This document shows, in pieces, positions 2,711 to 34,665 of a stretch of DNA of 54,774 bases. The notes under the pieces are model-generated. The model made no database searches. It worked only from the letters and a program-made list of their open reading frames with translations, and had not been told where the DNA came from. The stretch comes from Bacteroidales bacterium (GTDB taxonomy: Bacteria; Bacteroidota; Bacteroidia; Bacteroidales; UBA12077). Location of the stretch: the NCBI GenBank assembly GCA_046545815.1, contig JBKGZA010000003.1:1-54774 (forward strand). Direction: 5' to 3'. The position numbers and the translations under genes are program-made. How positions within the stretch are numbered: position 1 is the first letter of the stretch; each line of letters starts with the position of its first letter.

Positions 2711-3943
2711 ATGAAGCGATCGGGGCAGGCAGATCTGCCACTGCATAACGGAAAAGTTCCTCCATGGTTGTTTGAGCGGATGGCCAAACTTGGGGGCGCG
2801 GTCATTGAATGGATCGTACAGGAATATGGTAGTAGAGAGGTTATCCGGAAGATCAGCAATCCTTATTGGTTCCAGTCGCTGGGAGCAGTAATGGGAATGG
2901 ACTGGCATTCATCGGGTATAACCACTTCAGTAATGGGGGCTTTAAAAAAAGCTGTCAATCCAATGGCCCATGAGTTGGGTCTGTATGTTGCCGGAGGAAG
3001 GGGAAAATATTCGCGGCAAACGCCCGATGAATTGTTGCGCCTGGCCGAAAAAACAGGTTTAAACGGCAACCAGCTTGTAAGGAGCAGCCGGCTTAGCGCT
3101 AAAATTGATAATACAGCCATTCAGGATGGCTTTCAATTGTACCTGCACAATTTTATTGTCACTAGTACAGGGGAATGGGCAGTTATTCAGCAAGGCATGA
3201 ACGGCTCCAGCGGCATGGCCCGGAGGTATCACTGGCATTCGCAGAGGCTCAAATCATTTATTGAAGAACCCCATTCGTATATATGCGGACGTAATATGGG
3301 CCAGATAATGAATCTTACCGATAAGCATGCGAAGCCTTCAAGAGAAGGGATCATGCGGATCAGCAGGGAAAATCCTCAAAAGATGATCAAAGAGATTCAA
3401 AAGCTTGCCATGCCCTCCTACCACCAGGTACGGGCCGAAGATTTTGATCTGAAACGGCTCGGCTCCATACTCGCACTGACCTATGAGGGGCTGTATCAAG
3501 ATTTTGAATCGCTACTCCTCCTCCGTGGACTGGGTCCGAAAACCCTCCGTTCGCTGACCCTGGTAAGCGAAGTCATCCACGGAACTCCTTCAAGATTCAG
3601 GGACCCCGCACGCTTTTCCTTTGCCCATGGCGGAAAGGACGGGCATCCACATCCTGTGCAGACCAAAGTTTACGATGAAACCATCTCAGAACTTAAAAAT
3701 GCGATTGATCGGAGCAAAATCGGTTACAGTGACAAAAAGCAGGCACTCAAAAAGCTCTCGGGAATCTCCCGACAAATGGAAAAAGACTTCCAGCCCAATA
3801 ATCAGGAATATGAAAAATACCTCACCAAAGAAAAAGAAGAATCTTATCTATATGGAGGTCGGACAGCGTATGGGAAATCCAAACCACCTCACTCTAAAAA
3901 TCGCAGAAAAGACAAGGGACCCCAACAGCTCAGACTTTTCTGA
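2711..3943 (+). CDS. DUF763 domain-containing protein
   Basis: ADLPLH.G.VP.WL, WFQSLGAVMGMDWHSSGITT, FSFAHGGKDGHP motifs. Confidence 0.9.
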   Translation: MKRSGQADLPLHNGKVPPWLFERMAKLGGAVIEWIVQEYGSREVIRKISNPYWFQSLGAVMGMDWHSSGITTSVMGALKKAVNPMAHELGLYVAGGRGKYSRQTPDELLRLAEKTGLNGNQLVRSSRLSAKIDNTAIQDGFQLYLHNFIVTSTGEWAVIQQGMNGSSGMARRYHWHSQRLKSFIEEPHSYICGRNMGQIMNLTDKHAKPSREGIMRISRENPQKMIKEIQKLAMPSYHQVRAEDFDLKRLGSILALTYEGLYQDFESLLLLRGLGPKTLRSLTLVSEVIHGTPSRFRDPARFSFAHGGKDGHPHPVQTKVYDETISELKNAIDRSKIGYSDKKQALKKLSGISRQMEKDFQPNNQEYEKYLTKEKEESYLYGGRTAYGKSKPPHSKNRRKDKGPQQLRLF

Positions 3944-3986
3944 GAAGGCAACTGAAATCAGGGGGAGACTTGGGCCAGGAACTGCT

Positions 3987-5093
3987 TTAATCCATAAAAG
4001 AATAGATATAAGAGCGAATTTCGTCTTCGGCACTTTCCATTGACCTGAGTAAGGTCAGCTGTGCCTTTGTTCGCTGCAGATTATGTTCAGGATAGTCTAT
4101 TTTATAATATTTATCTTCCTGAAGGTAATCCGTAAGAAAACGGATGGTCTGTTCATAGACCATCATTAAAGGTGCAAGCGGCAACAACTTTTTCTCTTTT
4201 TCCGTCATTACATCAAGTGTCCGGTCAATATACCCCCGGGTAAAAGCTTTGAAATAGGCCAGGTTGAATGAGACATTGCTTAGATCCCTGTCATCTTCTT
4301 CTCCTGTATTCGTTATGGTACGCAAGGCATCTCCAAAATCGTAGTGAACATATCCAGGCATTACCGTATCGAGGTCTATGATGCATATAGCCTGGTCGGA
4401 TTTGTTAAGCAACACATTGTTAAACTTGGTATCGTTATGGGTAACTCTTAGTGGCAATAAACCTTTCTTACCTGCTACCCCAATGGAAGTCATCTTCTCT
4501 GCCCGCTCGTCCAAAAAGGTAATCATATCCCCTGCCTGATCCAATCTGTCCTTAGGTGCGTTGTTTATTGCCTCCCGAAACCATTCCAGCCGCTTTTGCA
4601 CATCATGAAAATGTGGAATAGAAATGTGGAGTTCATTCACAGGAAAATCCGTCAGGTTACGGATGAAATTGCCGAATGCCTTGCCTCCTTCCCAGGCTTG
4701 ATTGTCATTCTCCACCACATCCAGGGTTTTACTGTCAGGGATAAAATACAATAAGGACCAGTAATTCTTGTGGCTGTCCATAACATAATATTCTCCTGAT
4801 AAGGAAGGAAGCAATTTCAGGATATAGTGGAGTCCCGTTTCATCTAAGTTGGTTTGCTGTTTTTTCTGCCTCAAATGATCCGTCACCCTGGCTATATTTT
4901 TCAACAAGGCAGGGGGATTTTTGAAAACATACTGATTAATCCTTCTAAGTATGTAATCGGGCTTGTCGGGTTCGGCTGACTGAACCAGATAGGTGTCATT
5001 GATATGTCCTGAACCGTAAATTTCGGCAGAATAAAAACTGCCTTCCGTGTCAAATTGCTCGAAAATATTTTTAATTGCCTGATTGGAACCCAT
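3987..5093 (-). CDS. aminoglycoside phosphotransferase-family sugar kinase (NahK/AmgK-like)
   Basis: GSGHINDTY, THNDTKFNN, IDLDTVMPG, YDFGDALR motifs. Confidence 0.88.
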   Translation of the reverse strand: MGSNQAIKNIFEQFDTEGSFYSAEIYGSGHINDTYLVQSAEPDKPDYILRRINQYVFKNPPALLKNIARVTDHLRQKKQQTNLDETGLHYILKLLPSLSGEYYVMDSHKNYWSLLYFIPDSKTLDVVENDNQAWEGGKAFGNFIRNLTDFPVNELHISIPHFHDVQKRLEWFREAINNAPKDRLDQAGDMITFLDERAEKMTSIGVAGKKGLLPLRVTHNDTKFNNVLLNKSDQAICIIDLDTVMPGYVHYDFGDALRTITNTGEEDDRDLSNVSFNLAYFKAFTRGYIDRTLDVMTEKEKKLLPLAPLMMVYEQTIRFLTDYLQEDKYYKIDYPEHNLQRTKAQLTLLRSMESAEDEIRSYIYSFMD

Positions 5094-5117
5094 ATTTATT
5101 TTCGGATTAATCTGTGT

Positions 5118-6068
5118 TTATAAATCACTGCTATATTTTGTGGTTGCCATATTGTTCCACAATACTTGCGGATATTTTCCCGCATCAATCATTGCCCGTA
5201 TTTCTCTTATGGCAATTTGTTTATCTTCTCTGTAAGTAACCCCAAACCAGTTTCCCCTGGTGCGAAAGACTTTGGTGGTTGCCTGTTTTTTTGCAAGCAT
5301 CTGTGAAACAGCTTCCGGAAGATAAAACTCCGCTGACACGGAATAGCCATAGTCTTGCAGGAATTCTGAAAACAATTGTTCCAGGTGATCGAAAATATCC
5401 GGGGTAAAACCCCACAGGTTCATGGAAACCATTGTATCGGGACTGAAATATTTCTGTTTGCCCGTCATTGCGCTTTCACCTGTTATGTAACCGTTGGAAT
5501 CATACTGAATGTTCTTGTATTCATGTATATCAACCAGGTGGTCATTGTCATCCGTTTGAATGATCCCTCTCGCAACTTTTCCATATCTGGAAAGTGTTGC
5601 CTTCAGGTAATAAGCCACCATAGCAAAATTACCTTCCGAATTTTCCGAAAGGCCTCCCAGGAAGTCGTCAAGGGTTTGCATGGCGGAAATACCATAAAAA
5701 TCATCTGCATTTACTACAGCAAAGGGTTCGTCTATTGCATCCCGGCAGGCGAGCACTGCTTCTCCGGTCCCCCAAGGCTTAGTGCGCTTCACGGACATGG
5801 GGTATTTTTGTTTATATATGTGCTGGTAAGCATATTGAATTTCTACGTTCTGGTCGTTTAGCTGAGGTTCGAAGCGTTTTCTGAAAGCTTTTTCGAAATC
5901 TTCACGTATAAGAAATACAATTTTATTGAAACCGGCTCTGATGGCATCATACATGGTATAATCGATAAGTGCTTCCCCGTTTGGCCCAAAACGGTCAATC
6001 TGTTTTAATCCTCCATAACGGTTGCCCATACCGGCTGCAAGAATGAGAAGGGTACGTTTGCTGCTCAT
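5118..6068 (-). CDS. sugar-phosphate nucleotidyltransferase
   Basis: LAAGMGNRYGGLKQ, KPWGTGEA, NADDFYG motifs. Confidence 0.9.
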   Translation of the reverse strand: MSSKRTLLILAAGMGNRYGGLKQIDRFGPNGEALIDYTMYDAIRAGFNKIVFLIREDFEKAFRKRFEPQLNDQNVEIQYAYQHIYKQKYPMSVKRTKPWGTGEAVLACRDAIDEPFAVVNADDFYGISAMQTLDDFLGGLSENSEGNFAMVAYYLKATLSRYGKVARGIIQTDDNDHLVDIHEYKNIQYDSNGYITGESAMTGKQKYFSPDTMVSMNLWGFTPDIFDHLEQLFSEFLQDYGYSVSAEFYLPEAVSQMLAKKQATTKVFRTRGNWFGVTYREDKQIAIREIRAMIDAGKYPQVLWNNMATTKYSSDL

Positions 6069-6238
6069 GAGTGTATTTTAAATTAAAAAAAATGAAAATG
6101 CAGAAATGACAATCGAAATTCGGCTCAATATTAAAACAAATGAAAACTTTATCAAAATTTTCAACGGATAAATCCTTGGATACATTTGTTATCAGGCAAA
6201 TTCAATTAAACGGAAAGGTGATAGGACTTCTTGGAGGC

Positions 6239-6886
6239 TTATTTCAAATATCGACCAAACTGTTGATTCAGCTTTTCCATCTTGGGATCAATCCTTAAGC
6301 GGCAATAGGGCTGGTTGGGATTGTTCCTGTAGAAATCCTGATGGTAATCTTCGGCAACGTAAAAATTCTTAAAAGATTCGATTTCTGTAACAACCGGATC
6401 ACCGAAGTAGCCGGAATTGTCCATTTCTTCTTTTGATGCCTCTGCAATATGTTTTTGCTCTTCGCTGTGATAAAATATAACTGAACGATACTGTGTGCCG
6501 ATATCTGGTCCCTGACGATTGAGTGTGGTGGGATCATGGGTTTTCCAGAAAACTTCCAATAATTTTCTGTAGCTGACCAATTCTGGATCAAATTTAATCT
6601 GAATCACCTCGGCATGGCCGGTTCTACCTGTTGTAACTTCTTTATAAGAAGGATTTTTTACATGGCCTCCTGAATAACCCGATGTAACGCTTTTTACCCC
6701 CTGTATTTGCTGAAAAACGGCTTCCACGCACCAGAAACACCCTGCGCCAAAAGTAGCAGTTTCCAGTTTATTTTGATTATTGGTATTCATGGTTATTTTA
6801 TTTTGTTGAGCATTACCGTATTGAACCAACATTAAGATCATCAATATAAACGAGCTTATGTAATGCATGGGTTTTCTTTTTAACAT
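6239..6886 (-). CDS. msrA: peptide-methionine (S)-S-oxide reductase with N-terminal signal peptide
   Basis: GAGCFWCVE, TGHAEVIQ, HDPT, QYRS, AEDYHQ motifs; hydrophobic leader ending GNA-Q. Confidence 0.93.
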   Translation of the reverse strand: MLKRKPMHYISSFILMILMLVQYGNAQQNKITMNTNNQNKLETATFGAGCFWCVEAVFQQIQGVKSVTSGYSGGHVKNPSYKEVTTGRTGHAEVIQIKFDPELVSYRKLLEVFWKTHDPTTLNRQGPDIGTQYRSVIFYHSEEQKHIAEASKEEMDNSGYFGDPVVTEIESFKNFYVAEDYHQDFYRNNPNQPYCRLRIDPKMEKLNQQFGRYLK

Positions 6887-6987
6887 GCGATTTACTTTAT
6901 TATTAAAACAAATATCCCGGCTTTTGGTTTAGTTATACGAATAGTCACGTTCAGGATGAACCGATACGTCACAATTGAAAAATAACA

Positions 6988-8259
6988 TCAGGTGGTTTGT
7001 TTCCCAGAGGCCTCAATTACTTTCCGGAATACCCTCATGAAATTTCCGCCCCAGATTTTCTCAATTTCTTCCTTGGTATATCCTCTTTTAAACAGCTCAC
7101 GGGTTATTTTTTCAATTTCGCTCACATCTTTGCATCCTTCAACCCTGGCTCCACCATCAAAGTCCGTTCCGATTCCCACATGTTCCAGACCGATATGTTC
7201 AACTACATAGTCAATATGATCCACCACATCCTGAACAGAAGCCAGTTCTCCGGGGTATTTTTTCTGTAAGGCATTCCATTCCTTTCGGGCCTGTGCCATT
7301 CTTTCTTCGCTTAAATCCTCAAAATTATCGTATTTCTCCCGGAGGGTCTTCATTGCTGAATCCCTGGCTGGATTGGGCTCGGGCTTTATCAGATAGTCGC
7401 TGAAAAGGCATATCTGAATCACTCCGTTATTTTCTTTCAATGCCGTCAGCATAGAATCGGAAAGGTTCCGGGGGTGATCCCTCAAGGCCCTGACGCATGA
7501 GTGGGAAGCCATTACCGGGGCACGGCTCTGGTCAATCACATCAAAAAAGGCTTCGTCAGAAATGTGTGATACATCAACAATCATTCCCAGTTGATTCATT
7601 CGCTGTACGACCCTTTCTCCGAAATCACTTAAACCGTTATGTTCTGGTCCATCAGTATCTGTAGCAGAATCACATATATCATTATTGCTGGTGTGACATA
7701 GGGTTATATAGCGGGCACCCATATTGTAGTATTTGTCCACATACGAGAGGTCTTTTCCTATGGGATAACCGTTTTCAACACCTATATAAATGGCCCTTTT
7801 TTCTTTTTTCTCTATTTTATAAGCATCTTCAGGAGTTGTTGCAAGTGAAGCCATTTCGGGATATTCATTCACTGCTTCCTTAATTGCCGAAAACAACTCT
7901 CCTGCCCTTTCCCGGGCTTGTTGGTAACCGGCTGGTGACAGTTCTTTCTGAGCAGTAAAGACAGCAAAAAACACAGCATCAAGATTTCCTTCCTCCATAC
8001 GGGGAAGATCCAGTTGTGTTCGACTTGAATCATATGAATGTCTTTTTCCAATGTCGAAATCGGGATTTGCTAAATTCAAAGGGCTATCGGTGTGGGTGTC
8101 TATGGATAGGATTTCCTTATGAATTTGCTCTGCATTTTTTGTACTGGTATTATCGTTATTTTGTCTTTTACAACCACAGATAAAAACAATTAAAAGGATT
8201 ACAGAGGTAAATTTTGTCACATTCATAAATGATAAATATTTATTTAGAGTCCGGTTCAT
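6988..8259 (-). CDS. membrane dipeptidase (peptidase M19), lipoprotein
   Basis: IDTHTD, DVSH, ASHS, GIGTDFDG, KIWGGNFMRV motifs; lipobox ICGC; start uncertain (8259 or 8226). Confidence 0.9.
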   Translation of the reverse strand: MNRTLNKYLSFMNVTKFTSVILLIVFICGCKRQNNDNTSTKNAEQIHKEILSIDTHTDSPLNLANPDFDIGKRHSYDSSRTQLDLPRMEEGNLDAVFFAVFTAQKELSPAGYQQARERAGELFSAIKEAVNEYPEMASLATTPEDAYKIEKKEKRAIYIGVENGYPIGKDLSYVDKYYNMGARYITLCHTSNNDICDSATDTDGPEHNGLSDFGERVVQRMNQLGMIVDVSHISDEAFFDVIDQSRAPVMASHSCVRALRDHPRNLSDSMLTALKENNGVIQICLFSDYLIKPEPNPARDSAMKTLREKYDNFEDLSEERMAQARKEWNALQKKYPGELASVQDVVDHIDYVVEHIGLEHVGIGTDFDGGARVEGCKDVSEIEKITRELFKRGYTKEEIEKIWGGNFMRVFRKVIEASGKQTT

Positions 8260-8384
8260 AAAGTCTTCGGTGGTTAATATTATTTGTTTAAACCACAAGG
8301 TTTCATAGAGAGTGAATACAGAACAACACAGAGATCATCTCGGAAAATATTGCTAATTTTTTGACTTTTATTGTCTCCTGAAGT

Positions 8385-9095
8385 TTAATGTCTGTCCCCT
8401 TTATCATCCAGCATTGGAACAAACCTTACCCCGGATATTTCCTTCTTTTTGATTTCCCCGTTTTCTTTTTCCAGCAGGACAAGATTCTGAAATATAGTTC
8501 CGCCTACAGGTATGACCATCCTGCCACCCTCTGCAAGTTGCTTTTTCAACGGTTCAGGGACATCAGAAGGAGAAGCGGTAACAATGATGCCGTCAAAAGG
8601 TGCATGTTCTTCCCATCCTTTGTAACCGTCCCCGATTTTAATGCGGACGTTGTCGTATCCTTGCTCCCGTAAGGTTTTTCTTGCCCGTTCTGCCAGTTCT
8701 TCAACAATTTCTATTGAATACACGTTAGGGGTAATCTTTGAAAGCACAGCGGCCTGATAACCTGAACCTGTACCTATTTCCAGCATTTTATCGCCTTTTT
8801 CAAGATTAAGGTAATCAGTCATCAGTGCTACGATATAGGGTTGAGAAATGGTCTGATCTTGTCCGATAGGAAGCGGGCGGTCAGAATAAGCCATATGCCT
8901 GTTTTGCTCCGGTACAAATTCATGTCTTTTCACAGAGCGCATGGCTTGCAAAACTTGTGGATCTTCGATTCCCCTTCTTTCTAACTGTTCTTCAACCATC
9001 TTCGTTCTTTGCTGTGTATAATTTTGAGCGCAAGCAGCAATCGGTAAAAAGATGGTCAAAATCATTATTTGAAAAACCGTATTTTTCATGGTCAT
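8385..9095 (-). CDS. pcm: protein-L-isoaspartate O-methyltransferase with signal peptide
   Basis: QTISQPYIVA, LEIGTGSGYQAA, APFDGIIVTA, VRFVPM motifs. Confidence 0.93.
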   Translation of the reverse strand: MTMKNTVFQIMILTIFLPIAACAQNYTQQRTKMVEEQLERRGIEDPQVLQAMRSVKRHEFVPEQNRHMAYSDRPLPIGQDQTISQPYIVALMTDYLNLEKGDKMLEIGTGSGYQAAVLSKITPNVYSIEIVEELAERARKTLREQGYDNVRIKIGDGYKGWEEHAPFDGIIVTASPSDVPEPLKKQLAEGGRMVIPVGGTIFQNLVLLEKENGEIKKKEISGVRFVPMLDDKGDRH

Positions 9096-9169
9096 GGTAT
9101 TATTTACATACTTAAACGAATATTAACGGATGATTCTTATAATCTTAAAGCCTCAAATAGAATAAAACC

Positions 9170-12097
9170 TTATTTTAATGCATGATATAAAACTTCTACA
9201 GGATGCAAAGCCTTACGGGAAGTACCATCCATGATCTGATGCCTGCAGCTGGTACCGGGGGCAGCAATAACTGTTTTCTGGTCTGCAGCTCTAACAGCAG
9301 GAAACAAAACCAGTTCCCCGATTTTCATGGATGTGGCATAATGTTCCTTTTCATAGCCAAAAGACCCTGCCATTCCGCAACAGCCTGAAGGAATCTCCTC
9401 CACATGATGGTTTTCAGGAAACGAAAGGGTCAACCGCGTCGGATCGGTGGAAGCAACAGCTTTCTGCTGGCAATGCCCGTGAAGTAATATTTTGGTATCT
9501 TCATCGGTAAACTGTGCTTTTTTGATGTTACCGTTTTCCATCTCACGAGCCAGAAATTCATCAATCATAAAGGCATTGGATGCAAGTTTCTCCGAGATTT
9601 CCTTGTTTCCGGGTGTAGCAAGATCGGGATATTCATCGCGGAAAGCCAGAATCGCCGAAGGTTCAATTCCAACAAGTGGAGTGTCCTCGGTAATCTTATT
9701 TTCCAGAGCGCGGATGTTCCGGTTGGCAATTTTTTTGGCTTTTCTGACAAGTCCTTTTGACAACCAGGCACGTCCACTTTCCAGATGCCGGGGAATAATT
9801 ACATCGTAGCCCAGACGTTCAAGAAGCTGGATTGTTTTGATGCCGATATCGGTATCGTTATAATTGGTAAATTCATCGTTAAACAGATAAACCTTACCTT
9901 TTCGGAAAGTTTCGGCATGCAGGTCCTTTACATACCGTTTCATCCATTTAGAGAGGGTTTGTTTCTGCAACAGCGGCATACTGCGCCTGGTGGAGAAACC
10001 TACCGCGCGGTTAATCAATCCGGTGGTCACACGATTTTTCATGAAAAAATTATACAATCCCGGCCAGATTGATCCAAGCCGGTTCAAACGGTTGATATTA
10101 ACAATCATGCGGGTCCTTAAGGGAATGCCATTGGCATCGTAATAATGCTGGAGAAATTCCGCCTTAAGCTTGGCTACATCCACATTGGATGGACATTCAG
10201 TTTTACAGGCCTTACAAGAAAGGCACAATTCCATTACCTCATAGATTTCCCTGTGGTTGAAACGGTTTTTCTTCGCGGAATGAGTTAGGAATTCCCTGAG
10301 AATATTGGCCCTGGCTCTTGTGACGTCGTTTTCTTTTCGTGTGGCCATGTAGCTGGGACACATGGTTCCCCCGGTCAATTCCGTTTTCCGGCAATCCCCG
10401 CTCCCATTGCATTTTTCAGTGGCTCTCAGAATGCCACCAACATCTGAAAAATCAAAAACCGTAGGAATTTCGGGAACTTCCTGGCCAGGCAGAAACCTGA
10501 GGCTTTCATTCATGGTAGGCACATCCACGATCTTCCCGGGATTGAAGATCTCATTAGGATCCCATGCATGTTTGACCTCTTTGAGAAGCTGGTAATTTTT
10601 ATCGCCCAGTATGATCGGAATAAATTCACCCCGCAACCTGCCGTCGCCATGCTCACCGCTGAGGGAACCGTTGTATTTTTTTACCAAATGAGCAATTTCC
10701 CGTCCTATGGTACGAAACATTTCCACATCCTTTGGATCCTTCAGATTCAAAATGGGCCGCAGGTGCAGCTCTCCGGAACCGATGTGGGCATAAAACACAC
10801 AATCCAGATCATACTGATTCAGTATCTTTTGGAAATCAGCCATATAATCGGGTAAAGCTTCAACATTCACCGCTGTATCTTCAATGATGGATACAGGCTT
10901 GGCATCTCCCTTCATGTTAGAAAGTATGCCCAGACCGGCTTTTCTCAGATTCCACACCTTGCTTGCTTCCGGCTCATGAATTAACGGAAAATAGTATCCA
11001 TATCCGGCTTTTTGAAAATCATGAACCATTTCTCGATGGATTCGCTCTATTTCATCTTTGGACTCCCTGGCAAACTCAATGATGAGTATGGCCTCTGGGT
11101 CACCCTTTACGAATTCCCGGTTTTTCTGCTGATCCCTGTTGTTTTTGGTCAGCTCAAGAATGTGGTGGTCCATCATCTCCACAGTGCCCGGGTTGTGCTC
11201 AAGCGCTATCAGATTGGCACGAAAGGCATCTTCTTTGCTATTAAAATGAGCGGCTATAACTGCACTGGTCTTTGGCGGGAGCGGTACCAGGTTAAGTTTG
11301 ATTTCCGTTATAAACATCAATGTTCCCTCCGATCCGCAGATCAGTCTGCTGAAATTGAAGGGCTGCCCGGATTCTTCCGAATAAATCTCGGAATCCAACA
11401 ACAAATCTATGGAATATCCTGTATTCCTTCGATAAATGGATTTATCCGGATACTCCCTTTCTATTTCTTTTTGATTGACGGGATTGCTTAAAATCTCATG
11501 GATGCGCTTATAAATCTTCGACTCCAGGGAATCACCCTGGAGTTTTCGGTAAAATTCCTCCCGTGTGAGAGGTCCGAATTCCGCTTCGGAACCGTCACTT
11601 AAAAAACCTTTCACTGAGATGGTATGATGTCTGGTGGTGCCATAAAGCAGAGAATGAGCGCCGCATGCATTATTACCCACCATGCCTCCGATCATACAAC
11701 GATTGGCTGTGGAGGTCTCCGGTCCAAAAAACAACCCGTAATCTTTGAGAAAAAGATTCAGTTCGTCCAGTATCACTCCGGGCTGAACCCTTACCCATTG
11801 CTCCTCAGGATTGACTTCCAGTATATCGGTCATGTACCTTGATACATCAACTACAATTCCCGGCCCGACTACCTGACCGGCAAGGGAAGTACCGGCTGTT
11901 CTGGGAATCAATGAAGCTCCGGCTTCCTGTGCAAGATGGATCAGTGTAATTACATCCGTTTTGTCTTTAGGCAAAGCAACAGCCAGTGGAAGTTCCCGGT
12001 AGGCTGAAGCATCAGTGGCATAAAGCAGTCTGGTCTTTTTGTCTGTACAGAGCTCACCTTTTAGTTTGTGTTGATACGCTTGAAGCAAATTATCCAT
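9170..12097 (-). CDS. FAD-linked oxidase with 4Fe-4S and CCG domains (YdiJ/GlcD-like)
   Basis: YATDASAY, GTSLAGQ, SGEHGDG, CNGSGDC, CLSCKACKTECP, CCGMAGSFGYE motifs. Confidence 0.9.
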   Translation of the reverse strand: MDNLLQAYQHKLKGELCTDKKTRLLYATDASAYRELPLAVALPKDKTDVITLIHLAQEAGASLIPRTAGTSLAGQVVGPGIVVDVSRYMTDILEVNPEEQWVRVQPGVILDELNLFLKDYGLFFGPETSTANRCMIGGMVGNNACGAHSLLYGTTRHHTISVKGFLSDGSEAEFGPLTREEFYRKLQGDSLESKIYKRIHEILSNPVNQKEIEREYPDKSIYRRNTGYSIDLLLDSEIYSEESGQPFNFSRLICGSEGTLMFITEIKLNLVPLPPKTSAVIAAHFNSKEDAFRANLIALEHNPGTVEMMDHHILELTKNNRDQQKNREFVKGDPEAILIIEFARESKDEIERIHREMVHDFQKAGYGYYFPLIHEPEASKVWNLRKAGLGILSNMKGDAKPVSIIEDTAVNVEALPDYMADFQKILNQYDLDCVFYAHIGSGELHLRPILNLKDPKDVEMFRTIGREIAHLVKKYNGSLSGEHGDGRLRGEFIPIILGDKNYQLLKEVKHAWDPNEIFNPGKIVDVPTMNESLRFLPGQEVPEIPTVFDFSDVGGILRATEKCNGSGDCRKTELTGGTMCPSYMATRKENDVTRARANILREFLTHSAKKNRFNHREIYEVMELCLSCKACKTECPSNVDVAKLKAEFLQHYYDANGIPLRTRMIVNINRLNRLGSIWPGLYNFFMKNRVTTGLINRAVGFSTRRSMPLLQKQTLSKWMKRYVKDLHAETFRKGKVYLFNDEFTNYNDTDIGIKTIQLLERLGYDVIIPRHLESGRAWLSKGLVRKAKKIANRNIRALENKITEDTPLVGIEPSAILAFRDEYPDLATPGNKEISEKLASNAFMIDEFLAREMENGNIKKAQFTDEDTKILLHGHCQQKAVASTDPTRLTLSFPENHHVEEIPSGCCGMAGSFGYEKEHYATSMKIGELVLFPAVRAADQKTVIAAPGTSCRHQIMDGTSRKALHPVEVLYHALK

Positions 12098-27577: not shown

Positions 27578-28546
27578 ATGAAAACCCCATTAATCTTAAC
27601 GCTGATATATTTTCTATCATTCAGCCAAATGTATGCACAATTGCCTCAGGCATTGGACAAGAATACCATCATCAACATGGATATTAAAACGCAAACCCAG
27701 ATTAATTTTAAATTGAAAAATGGTGAGCCCTCAGATGAAGGCTATAAAAATTCTTTTAAGGAATTTGACAGAAATGGCAATGTCATCAAGGAAGAATATT
27801 ACCGCCGGGGTGATATCAATCAGGAGCTCAGTTATAAATATAATCAGAACCAGGATAAAACAGAATACGTAAATTATAGCGTTGAGGAAGACGAAGTCCG
27901 GTTTAAACAAACCATCAATTATAACAGCCAGGGTAAGAAAACCAAGGAGAACCGTTTCAACGGAAGTGAACACCGGATCATTGACTACCATTATAACAAT
28001 GACGGGAAACTTTCCAAGATCATCAAGAATGACCGTAAAGGCAATCTTGTTGAAAGAAGGGAGTTCTCCTACGAAGGAAATGTGGCAGAAATAAGGGTAT
28101 TGGACAGTGAGGGCAGTTTAATTTCCCGGATTGTAAATAAATACAATGACCAGGGCAGTCTAATAGAAAATCTTCAATTTAAGTCCAATGGCGACAGAAC
28201 CAAGAAAATCACCTATAAGTTTAACGAAGAAAATAATAAAATAGAAGAAACCAAGTACCAGAAGGGCAATTTCATTTACCGAAAGGAATTTTCGTACAAC
28301 TCTGACAACCAGTTGGTGGAAATAAAGAAAGAACAGCCCAAGGACAAAACTCACATATCCAAGATATTCAAATACAACAGTAAAGGCCAGTTATCAAAAG
28401 AGAAGTGGTACGATTCGATGACTGATGAATATTCTTACAAGGAATACTCTTATGATGATCAGGGTATAGTAAAAAAGGCCGAAGTATATTATGCATCTTA
28501 TGATGAAAAGGTGCTTTACCGGTATGACTATGAATTCTACGACTGA
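27578..28546 (+). CDS. exported YD/RHS-like beta-hairpin repeat protein
   Basis: Signal peptide (MYA-Q) followed by repeated Y.YN..G..... units. Confidence 0.78.
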   Translation: MKTPLILTLIYFLSFSQMYAQLPQALDKNTIINMDIKTQTQINFKLKNGEPSDEGYKNSFKEFDRNGNVIKEEYYRRGDINQELSYKYNQNQDKTEYVNYSVEEDEVRFKQTINYNSQGKKTKENRFNGSEHRIIDYHYNNDGKLSKIIKNDRKGNLVERREFSYEGNVAEIRVLDSEGSLISRIVNKYNDQGSLIENLQFKSNGDRTKKITYKFNEENNKIEETKYQKGNFIYRKEFSYNSDNQLVEIKKEQPKDKTHISKIFKYNSKGQLSKEKWYDSMTDEYSYKEYSYDDQGIVKKAEVYYASYDEKVLYRYDYEFYD

Positions 28547-29910
28547 GTATTCATAGTTCCGGCAATGTCAGCTGCCTGTTTAATCCGGTCAGCCATTCCA
28601 ATCCCGTCTTTCAGATTTCCCGCAATAATAAGACCTTTGTATCGGTGTTCAATCTTTTTTATTGTATCAACACGTTTGCCGCTCTCTTTTCCATACTGGG
28701 GAATGGCATATTGATAACGGTTGAATTTCAATAAATCGGGTTGAAATTCATTCAGCCCGAACATCTGTTTCATCTCTTTTCCCAGTATACCGGTCAGTTC
28801 GTGATCAGACTTTTCATACATCTCTTCTCTCCTGACACCTCCCAGGTAGATGGCGAAAAGTCTCCCGCCTTTCGGGGCGCGTTCCGGAATAAATGATGAC
28901 ATAAACAACGCGCCAAGGATATCCCGATTTTCTATATGGGGCACGAGGCCCCCAAAACCTTCCATTTGAAGGCCCTCCCATTTTTTAAATCCAACTGCTG
29001 CCTGAACCACTTTGGCATATTCAAGGGTTGCCATGTGGTTAAGTTCCGTTTTATCTAAAAAAGGAAAAACGCAAGGAAGCTCGTATGCACCGACAGTGGA
29101 AACCACTTGCCTGGCCAGGATATTTCTGTTTTCTCCCCGGTGATGAAACGCCACTTCAAAAAGTTGATTTACAGGATTTACCTGCAAACCTTCGGCATTG
29201 AAAAGGAAACGGTCCTCTCCTGCGGATTGATAAAGGCCTGTAATCAGCTGACCAAGACCTCCGTAGACAGAAAAGACATCTTTTGTGGCTTTTTTTTCCA
29301 ATTCATATTTTTTTGCGAATTTCTTTTTAACGGCCCCTCCTATGAAACTACCATACTCCTGTTCCAGGTTATACAATTTGGGAAGTGCGTATCTGGGAAC
29401 AATCATAGAAGGATCACCGGCATAAACACCCAATATGAAAGGGTCCACCGCGTAATTGAGAAAGGATTCCCCAAGTCTCCTTCTGACCATATCATCCAGG
29501 GTTTCATCAGGATTATCTCCGGGTTTCCGAAAAGGTTCCCCAAGAATTCTGAACTTGTCTTTCCAACTAAAAAGTGGTGTTTTAATGCCTTCTTTCAGAC
29601 CGGAAGGAAGTTTTTCCCACCGGTTGTGTTTCCATATATACCTTTTTTTTACTGAATCATCCGGAATATAGGGTTTGCAATAATCCTGCAGTTCATCAAA
29701 CAATTCGGCTACCTCCCCATACTTGATTATGCCTGTATTGGGTCCCTCCTCATATATAAATCCATCTTCCCTGTGCGTGCCGATCACTCCTCCGGGTTTT
29801 TCTTGTTTTTCAATGACCAGCACCGACCGGTCTGAATCTCTTAACTTATGGGCCAGTGTCAAACCGGTAAGGCCGGCTCCGAGAATCACAATATCGTACT
29901 GTTCTCTCAT
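28537..29910 (-). CDS. hemG: protoporphyrinogen oxidase (HemY-type)
   Basis: GAGLTGL Rossmann motif, EEGPNT, GVYAGDP, AIPQY; adjacent to hemN. Confidence 0.9.
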   Translation of the reverse strand: MREQYDIVILGAGLTGLTLAHKLRDSDRSVLVIEKQEKPGGVIGTHREDGFIYEEGPNTGIIKYGEVAELFDELQDYCKPYIPDDSVKKRYIWKHNRWEKLPSGLKEGIKTPLFSWKDKFRILGEPFRKPGDNPDETLDDMVRRRLGESFLNYAVDPFILGVYAGDPSMIVPRYALPKLYNLEQEYGSFIGGAVKKKFAKKYELEKKATKDVFSVYGGLGQLITGLYQSAGEDRFLFNAEGLQVNPVNQLFEVAFHHRGENRNILARQVVSTVGAYELPCVFPFLDKTELNHMATLEYAKVVQAAVGFKKWEGLQMEGFGGLVPHIENRDILGALFMSSFIPERAPKGGRLFAIYLGGVRREEMYEKSDHELTGILGKEMKQMFGLNEFQPDLLKFNRYQYAIPQYGKESGKRVDTIKKIEHRYKGLIIAGNLKDGIGMADRIKQAADIAGTMNTQS

Positions 29911-29911
29911 T

Positions 29912-31300
29912 TTATATCGTTTTTGAATACCGATTTTTAAAAGATGATTTCATAAGCGGATCGAAGGCCATGGCAATGTTCCTGATCAGGAAGAAGCCCT
30001 TTGAACTGACATTCACCACCTGATCATCATATTCAAGCAATCCTTCAGCAGCGAATTCCCCGAGATTTTTGGTGTCGTATTCCAGTATCCTTTTGAGTTC
30101 ATCACGGGAAATGTCAAATTCCCCGGCGATTGTATCAAAATTAAGATAATGGTTGCACATGATCTCATTAAGTACCTTTCTCCGTATCCTTTCCTCCCGG
30201 TTCAGCCTGTATCCTCTGAAAACAGGTAAAACACCCTTTTCCAGGCTTTGGTTGTAATCCGAAAGTTTTCTCGTATTCTGGCTGTATCCCCGGGAAAGTT
30301 GACTAATGCCGGTAGCTCCGAATGCGTAAACCTGGCCGGTTTTTTCCCTGGTGCAATATCCCTGAAAATTTCTGTGCAATGTTTTGTTTTTAAGTGCAAG
30401 GCTCAGCTCATCGCCGGATTTGGCATAATGATCCATGCCAATTGCCACATAGCCATTATCTGTTAACAGCTGAAAGGATGATCCAAGCATCTTCAGCTTG
30501 GTATCGGCCTGGGGAATATCAAAGGATTCGAGTTGTTTCTGATGCTCCTTGAACCATGGAACATGAGCATATGAAAAGGTTACAATTCGTTCAGGACTGA
30601 TTTCGATCGCCTTTTTAATACTTTTTGTATGATCTTCCAAAGTCTGGTAAGGCAAACCATAAACAAAATCGAAATTCACACTTTCAAATCCCGATTTTTT
30701 AGCTATCCGGTAAAGGTCTTGAATGGGATATTTTGCCGGTTTTCGATTCAGTTTTTTCAGCAAAGCGGTATTAAAATCCTGAATGCCCAGGCTCATCCTG
30801 TTGAAACCCATATTGCCCAGGCGTACAATATGATTGAGCTCCAGATAGGCCGGGCTGCATTCCATGGCAATTTCGGGATCAGCCGAAAGGGTGAACTTCT
30901 GATGAATCAGATTCATAATATCTTCTACATAATCCAAATTCAAAGAATTGGGAGTACCTCCGCCCCAATGGATTTGTGTGACAGGTCTGTTTTTATCAAG
31001 ATTTTCCGCTACAAGTCCGATTTCCTTTTTTACATTTTCAATATACCGTTCTATTTCCGTTTTGCCCGGCATCAAATTGGTGTTGCAGCCACAAAAATGA
31101 CAAATCCGGGGGCAAAAAGGGATGTGTATGTAAAGGGAAATGTTGGAGGGCCAGTCTTTGTTGGACGCGCTGACCATCTGAATATAATCGTTGCGGGTAA
31201 AAGCCTCTGTAAAATAATTGGCCGGGGGATAACTCGTATATCGCGGTCCCGGTTTGTTGTATTTTTTAATAAGCGTTGTGTCTATTTGCATGATATTCAA
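29912..31300 (-). CDS. hemN: oxygen-independent coproporphyrinogen III oxidase
   Basis: GPRYTSYP, HIPFCPRICHFCGC radical-SAM motif, HWGGGTP, HRNFQGY. Confidence 0.95.
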   Translation of the reverse strand: MNIMQIDTTLIKKYNKPGPRYTSYPPANYFTEAFTRNDYIQMVSASNKDWPSNISLYIHIPFCPRICHFCGCNTNLMPGKTEIERYIENVKKEIGLVAENLDKNRPVTQIHWGGGTPNSLNLDYVEDIMNLIHQKFTLSADPEIAMECSPAYLELNHIVRLGNMGFNRMSLGIQDFNTALLKKLNRKPAKYPIQDLYRIAKKSGFESVNFDFVYGLPYQTLEDHTKSIKKAIEISPERIVTFSYAHVPWFKEHQKQLESFDIPQADTKLKMLGSSFQLLTDNGYVAIGMDHYAKSGDELSLALKNKTLHRNFQGYCTREKTGQVYAFGATGISQLSRGYSQNTRKLSDYNQSLEKGVLPVFRGYRLNREERIRRKVLNEIMCNHYLNFDTIAGEFDISRDELKRILEYDTKNLGEFAAEGLLEYDDQVVNVSSKGFFLIRNIAMAFDPLMKSSFKNRYSKTI

Positions 31301-31302
31301 AT

Positions 31303-32061
31303 TTAAACAATTTCTTCTGACAATAAATAAGCGGGTTCCGGAGAAATTTCCGGATCAAAATACAATTTACCGATGCTCAGTGTAACAATAAACCCAATTA
31401 TAGTTTCAACAAGAAAAAGACCGGAATAACCAATCCAGTCCCCGATTCCTCCGCTGATTACCACCACCAGCAAGCTGCTCAGGTGGGTTAATACAATCTG
31501 AATGGTATAGTCGGTGCCCTCTTTCCCTTTACGCACGGTATTCATAGAAATGGTGAATATGGCCACAGAGGCCATACCGTAAGCACTCCAGGTCAGGGCA
31601 ATTCCTGTATAAACCAGTACGATACTGGTATTTCCAAAAGCGATGAAGGTCATAAAGCCGGCAGCCACACAGCCATAAAAGGCAAAAAGCCGCAATCCGT
31701 TCATGTTACCCACCCGTTTTAAAATATAACCTCCCAGAAAAGCACTTCCCGCACCAAATGCCGTTCCGAAAATTCCTGTCATGAAAGCAATTTCTTTTAC
31801 CGTATAACCCATATCCACCAGATAAGGTTTAAGCATAGATAAGATGCCTATGATCCCTGCATAAAAAATCACCAGAAGCACTACCCTCCTGCCAATGCGT
31901 TTCTGATGAAAAAATCCCAAAATATTGGAAAAAGCGATCCTGGACAATGAATACTCCTCCATCCGCATGATCACAGGTAATACGGTGGAGAAGAAGCTCA
32001 TCGGAATGGATTGAGCAAGATAAAGGCTCAGTAATATGCCGTATTTCTGAATTGGCTTCAT
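31303..32061 (-). pseudogene. AmpG/RhtX-like MFS transporter with an apparent in-frame internal deletion
   Basis: First TM (LYLAQSIPMSFFSTVLPVIMR) joins directly to the C-terminal half; 252 aa versus about 400 aa for a 12-TM MFS. Confidence 0.65.
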
Positions 32062-32313
32062 TGACTAACGCTGATTTAAAAGATTTGGGATATTGAGCGT
32101 ACTTGAAATGGTAAGGCCAAAACGTAAAGGTGCACTCTTCTGCGAATAAATATTGTTAAAAGACTCAAACAAGAAGCAATATAACCCATTTTATTGGTAC
32201 ATTATAACACAATATTTTGAAAAGTTAACCATTATTTATTAACTTTCGACAAGGTTAATTTACTGATAATAAAAACTATGAAACAAGTAATCTAAAGCGT
32301 ATTTTAAAAGGAA

Positions 32314-32661
32314 TTATGCTGGCGGGCCTCTCAAGCTGTAGGTACTATTTATATCGGGATTGCCTGTTATAGGGATTTTATAATGTGAATACAGCTTTTT
32401 TACCTTATATAATAATTCAAAATCTCCGTAAAAAAAGCGGGATTCTGCCTCATCTTTCTGACTTTCATCTTTATGAGAATAGAAAAAGGTACTATTGTCA
32501 TCAAAGGTTTGTTTTTCAAGAAGGGTGTCATTAGCCATCTCCTCTCCGCGCTCATCTTCATGTGATGTGGTTAAAACAACGCGGTTAAGCAGCAGCGTAC
32601 CGAAAACACCCAATACCAAGATATAAGGCAAAAGAGACGTTATGATGCCTGTATAGAACAT
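32314..32661 (-). CDS. membrane-anchored small protein ending in RGPP (putative arrest peptide)
   Basis: N-terminal TM helix, acidic spacer, C-terminal SLRGPPA-stop; own TATCTTTG box at 32684-32691. Confidence 0.7.
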   Translation of the reverse strand: MFYTGIITSLLPYILVLGVFGTLLLNRVVLTTSHEDERGEEMANDTLLEKQTFDDNSTFFYSHKDESQKDEAESRFFYGDFELLYKVKKLYSHYKIPITGNPDINSTYSLRGPPA

Positions 32662-32755
32662 ATTTTTTCTTCCAATGAGTTTTCAAAGATAAACATAGTA
32701 AAGCAATCTGAACATAAAAGCTCCAAAATTTATGATTTGTTTAAATAAAAAGGTT

Positions 32756-33061
32756 TCAGCTTTTCTTGTTTCTTTTTTGATTTTCAGGGAACCAGCCCTT
32801 TTCCACCCTTTTTTCCTGTTCCAGTATTTCTCCTATTCCCCATAAAAAAGTAAATCCCAATATTCCCAATGTGGAGGATACAACAAAATTTTCTGTGGTT
32901 AATGACAGCATCATGCACAGGATACCCAATATCAAAAAGCCGATCCAGAATTTTTTGGTAAAATAATATTCAGCCTTAATGGTAAGGTATCTCCCCAGAG
33001 CAATACTCAGAAATGCTCCTGCTCCCACAAGTATTCCAGTTAGGTTCAATGACTCCAACAT
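32756..33061 (-). CDS. DUF4491 family membrane protein
   Basis: IKAEYYF..., EQEKRVEKGWFPEN motifs. Confidence 0.82.
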   Translation of the reverse strand: MLESLNLTGILVGAGAFLSIALGRYLTIKAEYYFTKKFWIGFLILGILCMMLSLTTENFVVSSTLGILGFTFLWGIGEILEQEKRVEKGWFPENQKRNKKS

Positions 33062-33076
33062 CAATCTGAATGTATT

Positions 33077-33388
33077 TTAATTGTGATATCTCCTGTTCGG
33101 GTTTTTCTTTGCCTGGCCTTTCAGCACCCGCTGATGCTGTTTGAAAAGTTCCAGTGTGCTCCAGAAAAGGGCGAATCCCAAAACGCCTAAAATTACAGAA
33201 ACAAAATCATTCTTAAAAAACAGGGAAACACCGGAAAAAATAATACCGGAAAATAAAAATACGGGCCATACTTTCTTGCCAAAATGGTATTCTACCTTGA
33301 TAACTACGGGATGAAAAATCCCTATAATAACAAAGGCCATAAATCCTATTGCAATTCCTTCGAGGTTAAAATTCGACCAATTCAACAT
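33077..33388 (-). CDS. DUF4491 family membrane protein
   Basis: IIGIFHPVVIKVEYHFGKK...FWSTLELFKQHQRV..G...KNP motifs. Confidence 0.85.
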   Translation of the reverse strand: MLNWSNFNLEGIAIGFMAFVIIGIFHPVVIKVEYHFGKKVWPVFLFSGIIFSGVSLFFKNDFVSVILGVLGFALFWSTLELFKQHQRVLKGQAKKNPNRRYHN

Positions 33389-33495
33389 AAGCAACTAAAA
33401 ATCAAGGAATATTAAAGCCTGAATATAAATAAGTGCCCGAATTCCTAATGCCATTGACCTACCAATCAAAAACCCATCATCTCTTTCAACACAAA

Positions 33496-34665
33496 TTACC
33501 GCAGTTCTTTAAATGCCTGCTCCAGTTTATCTGACAAGCGCTGGAAGACTTCTTCCTGTGATCCCATTCCGTCAATGTCATAAATGATGTTCTTGCTTTT
33601 GTAGAAATCGAGGACAGGTCTGGTATGCCTGTCAAATTGTTCTATTCTGTGGATTATGGTATTGATATTTTGGTCATAGGGCCTTTTTTTCTCTGTTTTT
33701 CCCCGTTCCGTAAGCCTTTTGACCGATTCCAGAGTCGGTATGTCCATGTTCAGGACACAGGAAACGGATGAATTCATTTTTCGGAGCAAACCATCCAATA
33801 TGTAAGACTGAATCACAGTCTTTGGAAATCCTTTAAATAAGAACCCTCTTGCATTAGGATTGGTTTTAATCTGTTCCTCTATTACATTAATGGCAAATTC
33901 ATCGGGTACAATATCCCCTCTTTCAATGTAAGATTTTGCTTTCTGTCCCAAGTCGGTTCCTTTTTTCATCTCTTCATATACCCGTGATCCCATGGAGATA
34001 TAGGTGAGATTATACTTCTCGGCAAGTTCTCTGCCATGAGTTTCCTTGCCCGAACCGGGTGGACCGTAAAGCACCACATTCATCCATTCCTGAGTAAGCT
34101 TTTCTTCGATTGTATTAACGATTCTTTCAAAAACTTCATCAATAGCTCCCACACCATCAATTTCAAAATATATGCCTTTCTCCTTGTAAAAATTGGCAAC
34201 AGGGATGGTTTTGGATTTATATTCTTCAAAACGAATTTTTATGGCTTCTTCGGTATCATCGCTTCGGTTCTCCTTCTTGGCCCTTTCCAGCATCCTTTTC
34301 ATCAGTTCATCTTCCGGTACTTCAAGACTGACCATACAAGAAAGTGAAGTATTCAACTTAAGCAATAAGCCCTCGAGGATATAAGCCTGGATGAAAGTCC
34401 TGGGGAAACCGTCAAATAAAAATCCATCTGCCTGGGTATTTTCCTGCATTTTTTTTTCAATAAGCTGAACGATGAGATCGTCAGATACCAATTCCCCCTT
34501 CTCAATGACATTTTTCACCTTATTTCCCAATTCTGTTCCCTGAGCCATTTCTTCCCTTAGAATATCTCCAGTTGAAAGATGGGCCAGATTGTACTTATCC
34601 ATCAGCTTTTTCGCCTGAGTTCCTTTTCCAGCGCCTGGCGGACCAAAAAGTGCAATGTTAAACAT
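33496..34665 (-). CDS. adk: adenylate kinase, tandem two-domain form
   Basis: GPPGAGKGTQ / STGDILR / DGFPRT in domain 1; GPPGSGKETH / SMGSRVY / KGFPKT in domain 2. Confidence 0.9.
   Translation of the reverse strand: MFNIALFGPPGAGKGTQAKKLMDKYNLAHLSTGDILREEMAQGTELGNKVKNVIEKGELVSDDLIVQLIEKKMQENTQADGFLFDGFPRTFIQAYILEGLLLKLNTSLSCMVSLEVPEDELMKRMLERAKKENRSDDTEEAIKIRFEEYKSKTIPVANFYKEKGIYFEIDGVGAIDEVFERIVNTIEEKLTQEWMNVVLYGPPGSGKETHGRELAEKYNLTYISMGSRVYEEMKKGTDLGQKAKSYIERGDIVPDEFAINVIEEQIKTNPNARGFLFKGFPKTVIQSYILDGLLRKMNSSVSCVLNMDIPTLESVKRLTERGKTEKKRPYDQNINTIIHRIEQFDRHTRPVLDFYKSKNIIYDIDGMGSQEEVFQRLSDKLEQAFKELR

Follow-up and report, generated by a model that had tools for sequence, protein, structure and literature searches.

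The leader protein CruR of Bordetella pertussis (Bp2923, DUF2946/PF11162) stalls its ribosome and so blocks Rho, and copper releases the stall (PMC9426467); arrest by CruR has been demonstrated (PMC12992588). Small proteins ending in RAPP or RGPP are reported to precede TonB receptor genes across the Gram-negative bacteria. As arrest cores these two motifs act most strongly whatever their context, RGPP being the most robust, and 7 of 7 tested small proteins of this kind from Streptomyces arrested (PMC12992588). RPPP is the strongest XPPP staller in assays lacking EF-P, the factor that normally rescues PPP stalls (PMC4176338). Arrest of B. subtilis ribosomes was obtained with Bacteroidales members of the RQH group (PMC10987492), and the proline-rich tail of the leader CutF is by itself a weak staller (PMC9973294). 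Thus RAPP/RGPP leaders before TonB receptors are already known, and the only ligand that we found described for such leaders is copper (CruR, CutF).

We analysed a stretch of 54,774 nucleotides from a Bacteroidales bacterium (contig JBKGZA010000003.1, positions 1 to 54,774), here called the window, in which a first-pass annotation had proposed a candidate arrest peptide. The candidate is a minus-strand ORF of 115 aa (32314–32661, ATG at 32661, TAA at 32314), and its C-terminus is indeed SLRGPPA-stop; RGPP forms residues 111–114 and is encoded by AGA GGC CCG CCA at 32320–32331 (minus strand), one codon ahead of the stop. The promoter of its own that had been assigned to it is the Bacteroidota −7 box TATCTTTG at 32684–32691 (minus strand), which matches the consensus TAnnTTTG (PMC7366714) and lies 30 nt 5′ of the ATG, its first base being 32691, so that 32691 is the start of the box and not of the ORF. 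No −33 TTTG was evident at the usual spacing from this box. TAnnTTTG was found 15–60 nt ahead of 26 of 47 leaders, compared with 295 of 1944 control long ORFs of the genome. The proposed N-terminal membrane helix was borne out by hydropathy, residues 6–24 being hydrophobic with a best 19-residue Kyte–Doolittle mean of 2.19, and by AlphaFold2, which with a 76-row alignment gave a single confident helix at residues 4–38 and left the remainder unstructured. The uncharged, conserved helical segment comprises residues 1–26 (32584–32661, minus strand), and a linker that is variable in sequence and kept in length follows (32353–32583, minus strand). This spacer is net acidic with three Ser-His dipeptides, and the whole protein is devoid of Cys. 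The leader matched no Pfam or NCBIfam family; its neighbours bearing names in a language-model comparison belonged to DUF2946, SecM_small and DUF6769 clusters, which we take as a lead only.

A lack of RGPP conservation, which would have spoken against the arrest reading, was not observed. A database search gave 15 related proteins. RGPP is the C-terminal motif in all 14 that are full-length close homologs, and these agree over residues 1–26 but do not align in their middle parts; the 15th is a 77-residue fragment that does not include the tail. A profile search added 23 leaders, 15 with RGPP, four with RAPP, three with RPPP and one with LSPP. Among the 47 leaders for which DNA was at hand, the tail was RPPP in 19, RGPP in 14, RAPP in eight, RPPT in three, and NPPP, KAPP and LPPP in one each, so that six deviate from R[AGP]PP. 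Every synonymous codon for Arg (six) and for Pro (four) is used in the motifs of these 47, hence the motif is conserved as protein and not as RNA. One to nine residues follow the motif in every one of them; its Arg is at residue 102–121 (mean 111.6, sd 4.4, n = 41), and the distance from the helix Pro to this Arg is 90–108 residues in the 39 members with Pro at position 10–12. The genome otherwise avoids such sequences: R[AG]PP did not occur in the 852,000 residues of its ORFs of at least 200 aa against 5.4 occurrences expected, nor did RPPP in these ORFs, and endings of the R[AGP]PP type were present in 2 of 1584 ORFs of 90–140 aa and 0 of 1975 ORFs of at least 200 aa. Because such endings are this rare, the tail of the leader is not a product of chance. 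The sole other ORF of the genome with such a tail, on contig C80 (7302–7715, minus strand, 137 aa), has an N-terminal helix and the sequence PHEHHY, ends in SSRAPPYLSL, and directly precedes two genes named by sequence reading, one for a 1461-aa protein resembling the heavy-metal efflux pumps CusA/CzcA and one for a His-rich partner. With an RGPP-type motif and a gene context that are both conserved, the locus stands as a candidate arrest-type leader lacking CxxC, as had been suggested, and we regard it as highly probable that the leader stalls its own ribosome.

The downstream genes had been listed as co-oriented with the leader, namely a receptor scar, an MFS permease, hemN and hemG, and this is correct. 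When the leader profile was run against 56 genomes of the family, 16 matched (14 of 16 in the genus), and a sample of the order gave two more, one of which was false. A TonB-dependent receptor gene of about 710 aa comes next after the leader in all 16 true loci fetched and in all four metagenome loci that extend that far, and, on contigs that continue, the genes after it are those of a ∼415-aa permease, hemN and hemG, with hemH in some loci. To avoid circularity, loci were then picked by the permease alone, which matched in 58 of 401 genomes of the order; among the 56 permease loci newly fetched the receptor was upstream in 55 and hemN or hemG downstream in 53. Five loci with short upstream DNA and one without the receptor were dropped, and in the 50 assessable operons a leader of 107–122 aa was present in 30 and absent in 20. 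Leaders of this set were found by a permissive pattern and by eye, and 24 of the 30 carry a strict R[AGP]PP. By N-terminus, 24 of the 30 fall in the family of the window, five have a different N-terminus, and one is of a third type. The main leader family covers 20 family labels, and in a quick permease tree, which is descriptive only, it is widely spread with several losses and with the three motifs interleaved. The second N-terminal type (L070, L094, L095 and L096 with family label f4, and L072) precedes the same operon, aligns with the main family at the tail only, and has a helix end of the form W-x5-L-x-NFH-x5-GK and an RGPP or RAPP tail; it matched nothing in Pfam. Related records carry Bacteroidales labels.

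Several further loci were considered. A receptor search of genome contigs gave five close loci. L035 and L102 were rejected as ftsL-like false positives, and L099 and L103 showed no leader. L098 (1474–1818) and L100 (1471–1821) hold other RGPP leaders before other TonB receptors and are not of this family; they come from distant Bacteroidota, contain CxxC and His clusters, and are CruR-like. In the closed genome G260 (locus L034) the operon is interrupted between receptor and permease by a 496-aa transposase-like ORF that runs the other way, and in L082 two receptor genes stand in tandem. Throughout the family the leader is preceded by a conserved 389-aa adenylate kinase with two tandem ADK domains (33496–34665, minus strand, in the window).

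Downstream of the window's leader, hemN (29912–31291, minus strand) scores 496.5 bits against TIGR00538 (cut-off 324.95), and the hemG/hemY-type protoporphyrinogen oxidase gene (28537–29910, minus strand) scores 224.5 bits against TIGR00562 (cut-off 97.85). The closest solved relative of the intact receptor is the pesticin receptor (4epa, E 1e-44), and the best family of the permease is RhtX/FptX, below the curated cut-off. FyuA/YbtX, FptA/FptX and RhtA/RhtX are receptor–permease pairs. The receptor and permease studied here resemble these pairs, both below curated cut-offs, but precede hemN, hemG and often hemH instead of siderophore genes. In the 73 operon-bearing genomes, to which these counts are confined, hemE (TIGR01464) was matched in five and hemB in nine, so that 68 gave no hemE match; the closed genome G260 has hemN-hemG-hemH and no match to hemB, hemC or hemE. 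The early heme steps are missing from many Bacteroidota anyway (PMC13096392). Because hemE and hemB were not matched in most carriers, the HemN substrate coproporphyrinogen III should come from outside, and import of coproporphyrin(ogen) is then the likely role of the receptor and permease. Hence the receptor–permease–hemN–hemG operon likely salvages coproporphyrin(ogen), a substrate that we infer from gene content.

We propose that the leader is a stall-operated switch that keeps transcription going into the operon for coproporphyrin(ogen) scavenging and that plentiful heme or porphyrin favours release, a reading to which we give an even chance. The nascent helix would target the chain to the membrane, the RGPP stall would keep transcription running into receptor–permease–hemN–hemG, and a pull on the helix would release the stall. 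On the mRNA thus freed, Rho would end transcription in the gap of 38–431 nt between leader and receptor, and therefore stalling would mean on and release off, which is the logic of CruR. Abundance of heme or porphyrin, sensed via the conserved helix, would favour the release. In the window genome, where the importer has decayed, the same switch would gate hemN–hemG only. Against the proposal as a whole speak the 20 leaderless operons among the 50, the six of 47 tails that deviate from R[AGP]PP, the rescue of PPP stalls by EF-P and the weak stalling by the CutF tail. The parts of this proposal differ in strength. Control of the downstream genes by the stall is fairly probable. By analogy, Rho attenuation may be the means of control, for which we see balanced odds, and heme or porphyrin status as the signal falls a little short of that.

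Eleven pairs of leaders were compared, and in the five closest taken together dN/dS was 0.06 in the helix, 0.39 in the linker and 0.19 in the tail; both ends of the leader are under purifying selection and the linker is relaxed. In the helix M1, F2, P12 and Y13 are nearly invariant, K and R are absent from the first 24 residues in all 41 members, and the net charge just after the helix is negative in 28 of the 41. The helix is thus a signal anchor, probably with the linker outside. The first-pass annotation had drawn attention to the Ser-His dipeptides of the spacer and to a link with metal; the three dipeptides do exist in this leader, and nothing backs a role for them, since 32 of 41 family linkers have none. 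Ser-His dipeptides as metal ligands were therefore rejected, and with CxxC in just 1 of 41 linkers, metal binding by the spacer as a whole fails as well: the spacer is not a metal site. No conserved Cys or His was found in the linkers of the 41 members. Among the 37 members with P[YF], the place of Tyr13 is taken by Tyr in 33 and by Phe in four, and 10 have a His two places before the helix Pro. Tyr13 and this His are possible heme contacts by sequence and neither is invariant; Tyr/Phe exchange and the sparse His mean that there is no invariant heme ligand. The strong conservation of the helix nevertheless suggests a specific ligand or partner.

These same features bear on the main rival to heme or porphyrin sufficiency as the signal, which is export capacity or proton-motive force. 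The leader might monitor membrane insertion or export, through the pull of Sec, SecDF or YidC or through a proton-motive force that falls without heme, and a weak pull would induce the operon. A localisation signal, an unstructured spacer and a RAPP-like tail make up the anatomy of SecM, ApdA and ApdP, conserved ligand residues are missing from the linker, the net negative charge that follows the helix in 28 of the 41 members fits an exported linker, and an unrelated helix can substitute. However, neither sec nor yidC follows any of the leaders, and a helix with a dN/dS of 0.06 and nearly invariant P12 and Y13 is far more conserved than a generic anchor would require. We consider an export monitor unlikely.

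In the window genome the importer itself has been lost. A deletion has removed about 2 kb of the receptor gene downstream of the leader and left a scar of the last ∼45 codons, frameshifted and without start codon (32065–32203, minus strand), and the RhtX/FptX/AmpG-like MFS permease (31303–32061, minus strand) carries an in-frame internal deletion that removed ortholog residues 41–199. A receptor query found no second receptor copy in this assembly. We ruled out an assembly artefact as the cause, because in runs X2 and X3, both from one study, single contigs with SNPs of their own span both deletion junctions; the leader ORF there shows three SNPs and, in the linker, an insertion of 3 nt, with the frame and RGPP retained. 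This genome is one of the five operon-bearing genomes with hemE. Matches to hemC, hemB and hemE are on its contig C74, with hemD-, hemL- and hemA-like ORFs, named by sequence reading, beside them; this de novo tetrapyrrole cluster (3508–10884) includes a divergent, presumably CbiX-like chelatase ORF amid cobalamin-type genes. The importer has thus decayed in a genome that has the de novo pathway. PF00762 ferrochelatase was not matched in the window genome (G000, 91% complete) or in its relatives G305 and G314, and another chelatase may therefore finish heme. The close relatives G305 and G314 hold de novo genes yet have the operon whole, and the protein of the permease remnant does not change faster than its orthologs; hence the decay looks recent. 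A TAnnTTTG match at 31298–31305 (minus strand), a few bases before the hemN ATG, is either a separate hemN promoter or chance.

Because the deletions look recent, the intact RGPP of this genome need not be under current selection. This touches on the alternative that the stall is constitutive, serving anti-termination or tethering the mRNA to the membrane with no signal input, or that the leader is a recent relic in this genome. The absence of sensor residues, the recent deletions and the 20 leaderless operons out of 50 would all agree with it. On the other hand, helix conservation is strong and specific over 20 family labels, and the strains retain frame and motif despite the 3-nt insertion and three SNPs, which makes a signal-free or relic leader improbable.

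How the stall would act on the operon can be approached from the RNA. From 32264 to 32391 (minus strand) a C-rich, G-poor stretch before the motif and a pyrimidine-rich stretch past the stop form a candidate zone for Rho loading and termination. The C over G skew in the 60 nt before the motif was +0.25, and positive in 87% of 47 leaders, against −0.12 in 415 control genes, and the 50 nt past the leader stop have a pyrimidine fraction of 0.58 against 0.50. At four-fold sites the ratio was 126 C to 79 G, which is not significant (p = 0.14); the loci are related and p-values are thus overstated. A rut site kept by selection at the RNA level is thus a candidate only, and amino-acid composition could account for the skew. 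Structure ahead of the motif is not unusually low (mean z −0.95). The gap from the leader to the receptor start has a median of 128 nt (38–431 nt, n = 46), and post-stop segments folded better than z −2 in 7 of 47 cases, so that there is no general structure. Nothing in Rfam matched the leader or gap at the gathering score in 12 loci including that of the window, by which a riboswitch in the leader, such as one for cobalamin, was rejected. A gene for Rho is present in the genome. With a gap that is long and variable, lacks a general structure and matches nothing in Rfam, transcription attenuation fits better than the unmasking of a start site.

The inverted repeat AGTTAA-N10-TTAACT lies at 32222–32244, just before the lost receptor start. 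Repeats of the form AGTTAA-N10/11-TTAACT are found 65–71 nt past the stop in the window and in L019, L109 and L110, that is in 4 of 52 leaders examined; the N10 pattern occurs four times in the genome and is a weak hairpin or an operator. The presence of this repeat shortly ahead of the receptor start, in the window as well as in three of its close relatives, is what favours the idea that the stall opens RNA structure for translation initiation of the receptor and leaves transcription unaffected, following the logic of SecM and CutF, and CutF does operate in this way (PMC9973294). But a gap of 38–431 nt is mostly beyond the footprint of a stalled ribosome, only 7 of 47 post-stop segments are better than z −2 and 4 of 52 leaders have the repeat, and Shine-Dalgarno sequences are lacking in Bacteroidetes mRNAs. 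Start-site unmasking is thus quite improbable, and attenuation of transcription is the preferred form of control.

Just upstream of the leader is a tandem pair of DUF4491 membrane-protein genes (32756–33394, minus strand), which often, though not always, adjoins the leader and operon. A tandem DUF4491 pair is beside 6 of 30 leader-bearing and 0 of 20 leaderless operons; the pair adjoins the operon in 19 loci, all with the leader, and all seven genomes with the tandem pair among 59 searched have the leader. DUF4491 was not matched in three closed genomes that carry the leader (G260, G234 and G029), which rules out DUF4491 as an obligatory partner. One DUF4491 copy has an invariant FHP His, the pair is fused in L023, L032, L033 and L049, and in G317 and G041 remnants of DUF4491 immediately precede the leader. 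The family was not found by name in the literature searched. It is very improbable that the leader gene makes a small, stable membrane subunit for the importer, bound to the permease or the DUF4491 pair and with an incidental tail: the conserved helix and the association with the tandem pair speak for it (6 of 30 leader operons against 0 of 20 others, and 7 of 7 tandem-pair genomes of 59 searched), but the genome otherwise excludes the tail motif, which is maintained at a distance of ∼85 residues from the helix with a linker between them that is not conserved, and is common to an unrelated leader family, and the three closed genomes have the leader without a DUF4491 match.

Hence we conclude that these leaders form a real, unnamed family, that they are probably arrest peptides, and that the operon to which they are tied probably salvages heme precursors. 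In the literature searched, outside which most subscription papers fall, we found no description of the family or of an arrest leader of the heme pathway. The word 'heme' does not occur in the main text of PMC12992588, nor is a link to heme synthesis made there; four terms had no match in the nine supplementary files searched, and six family motifs had none in the searched part of its Fig. 4 source file, outside which lies the RGPP list, where members may be listed. The family is a defined and testable case tied to the cross-feeding of heme precursors in Bacteroidales, most of which are unable to start the pathway, and because a cysteine sensor is absent a different sensing chemistry is needed. 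Switching among RGPP, RAPP and RPPP and replacement of the helix amount to natural experiments that can show which elements such a switch depends on. Tentatively, this could be the founding family of tetrapyrrole-responsive arrest peptides, in which the nascent helix reads heme or porphyrin and release at RxPP switches a coproporphyrin(ogen) operon in non-producers; the helix would have been replaced at least once and the tail kept, and the switch would have outlived the importer in the window genome, now governing late steps of de novo heme synthesis.

The leader fits the RAPP/RGPP class in that it is shorter than 300 aa and has a near-C-terminal motif, a localisation signal and a co-oriented TonB receptor (PMC12992588), but almost all members of the TonB-associated class have a signal sequence, whereas here an uncharged anchor begins at Met1 and 19 of 47 tails are RPPP. 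A RAPP-like core, an N-terminal localisation signal and an unstructured spacer are shared with ApdA, ApdP and RQH, and with SecM and MifM (PMC10987492); ApdA, ApdP, SecM and MifM are upstream of secA, secDF or yidC, unlike any of the loci here. CutF of Rhodobacter capsulatus is likewise an exported leader with a proline-rich tail and controls its downstream operon in cis, as we propose for the present leader, which differs by having no charged n-region, no conserved Cys (CxxxC in CutF) and no general post-stop stem-loop. By analogy in arrest and regulation, the leader probably works like CruR. In common with CruR it is small, begins with a localisation segment and has its RAPP-like motif within a few residues of the stop; the gap is long (median 128 nt, compared with 162 nt in CruR) and leads to a TonB-dependent receptor (PMC9426467), a C over G stretch, here not significant at four-fold sites, precedes the motif, and the operon is for nutrient import, where a stall that means on makes sense. 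It is nevertheless not a DUF2946/CruR member: PF11162 matched 0 of 76 members (E 0.05) and 0 of 5 of the second N-terminal type, CxxC is present in 1 of 41, and the spacing from sensor to motif is 90–108 residues rather than fixed within one or two. Thus the leader is probably CruR-like in its operation and departs from CruR in having an uncharged anchor in place of a Sec signal, in preceding heme-precursor rather than copper genes, and in belonging to Bacteroidales.
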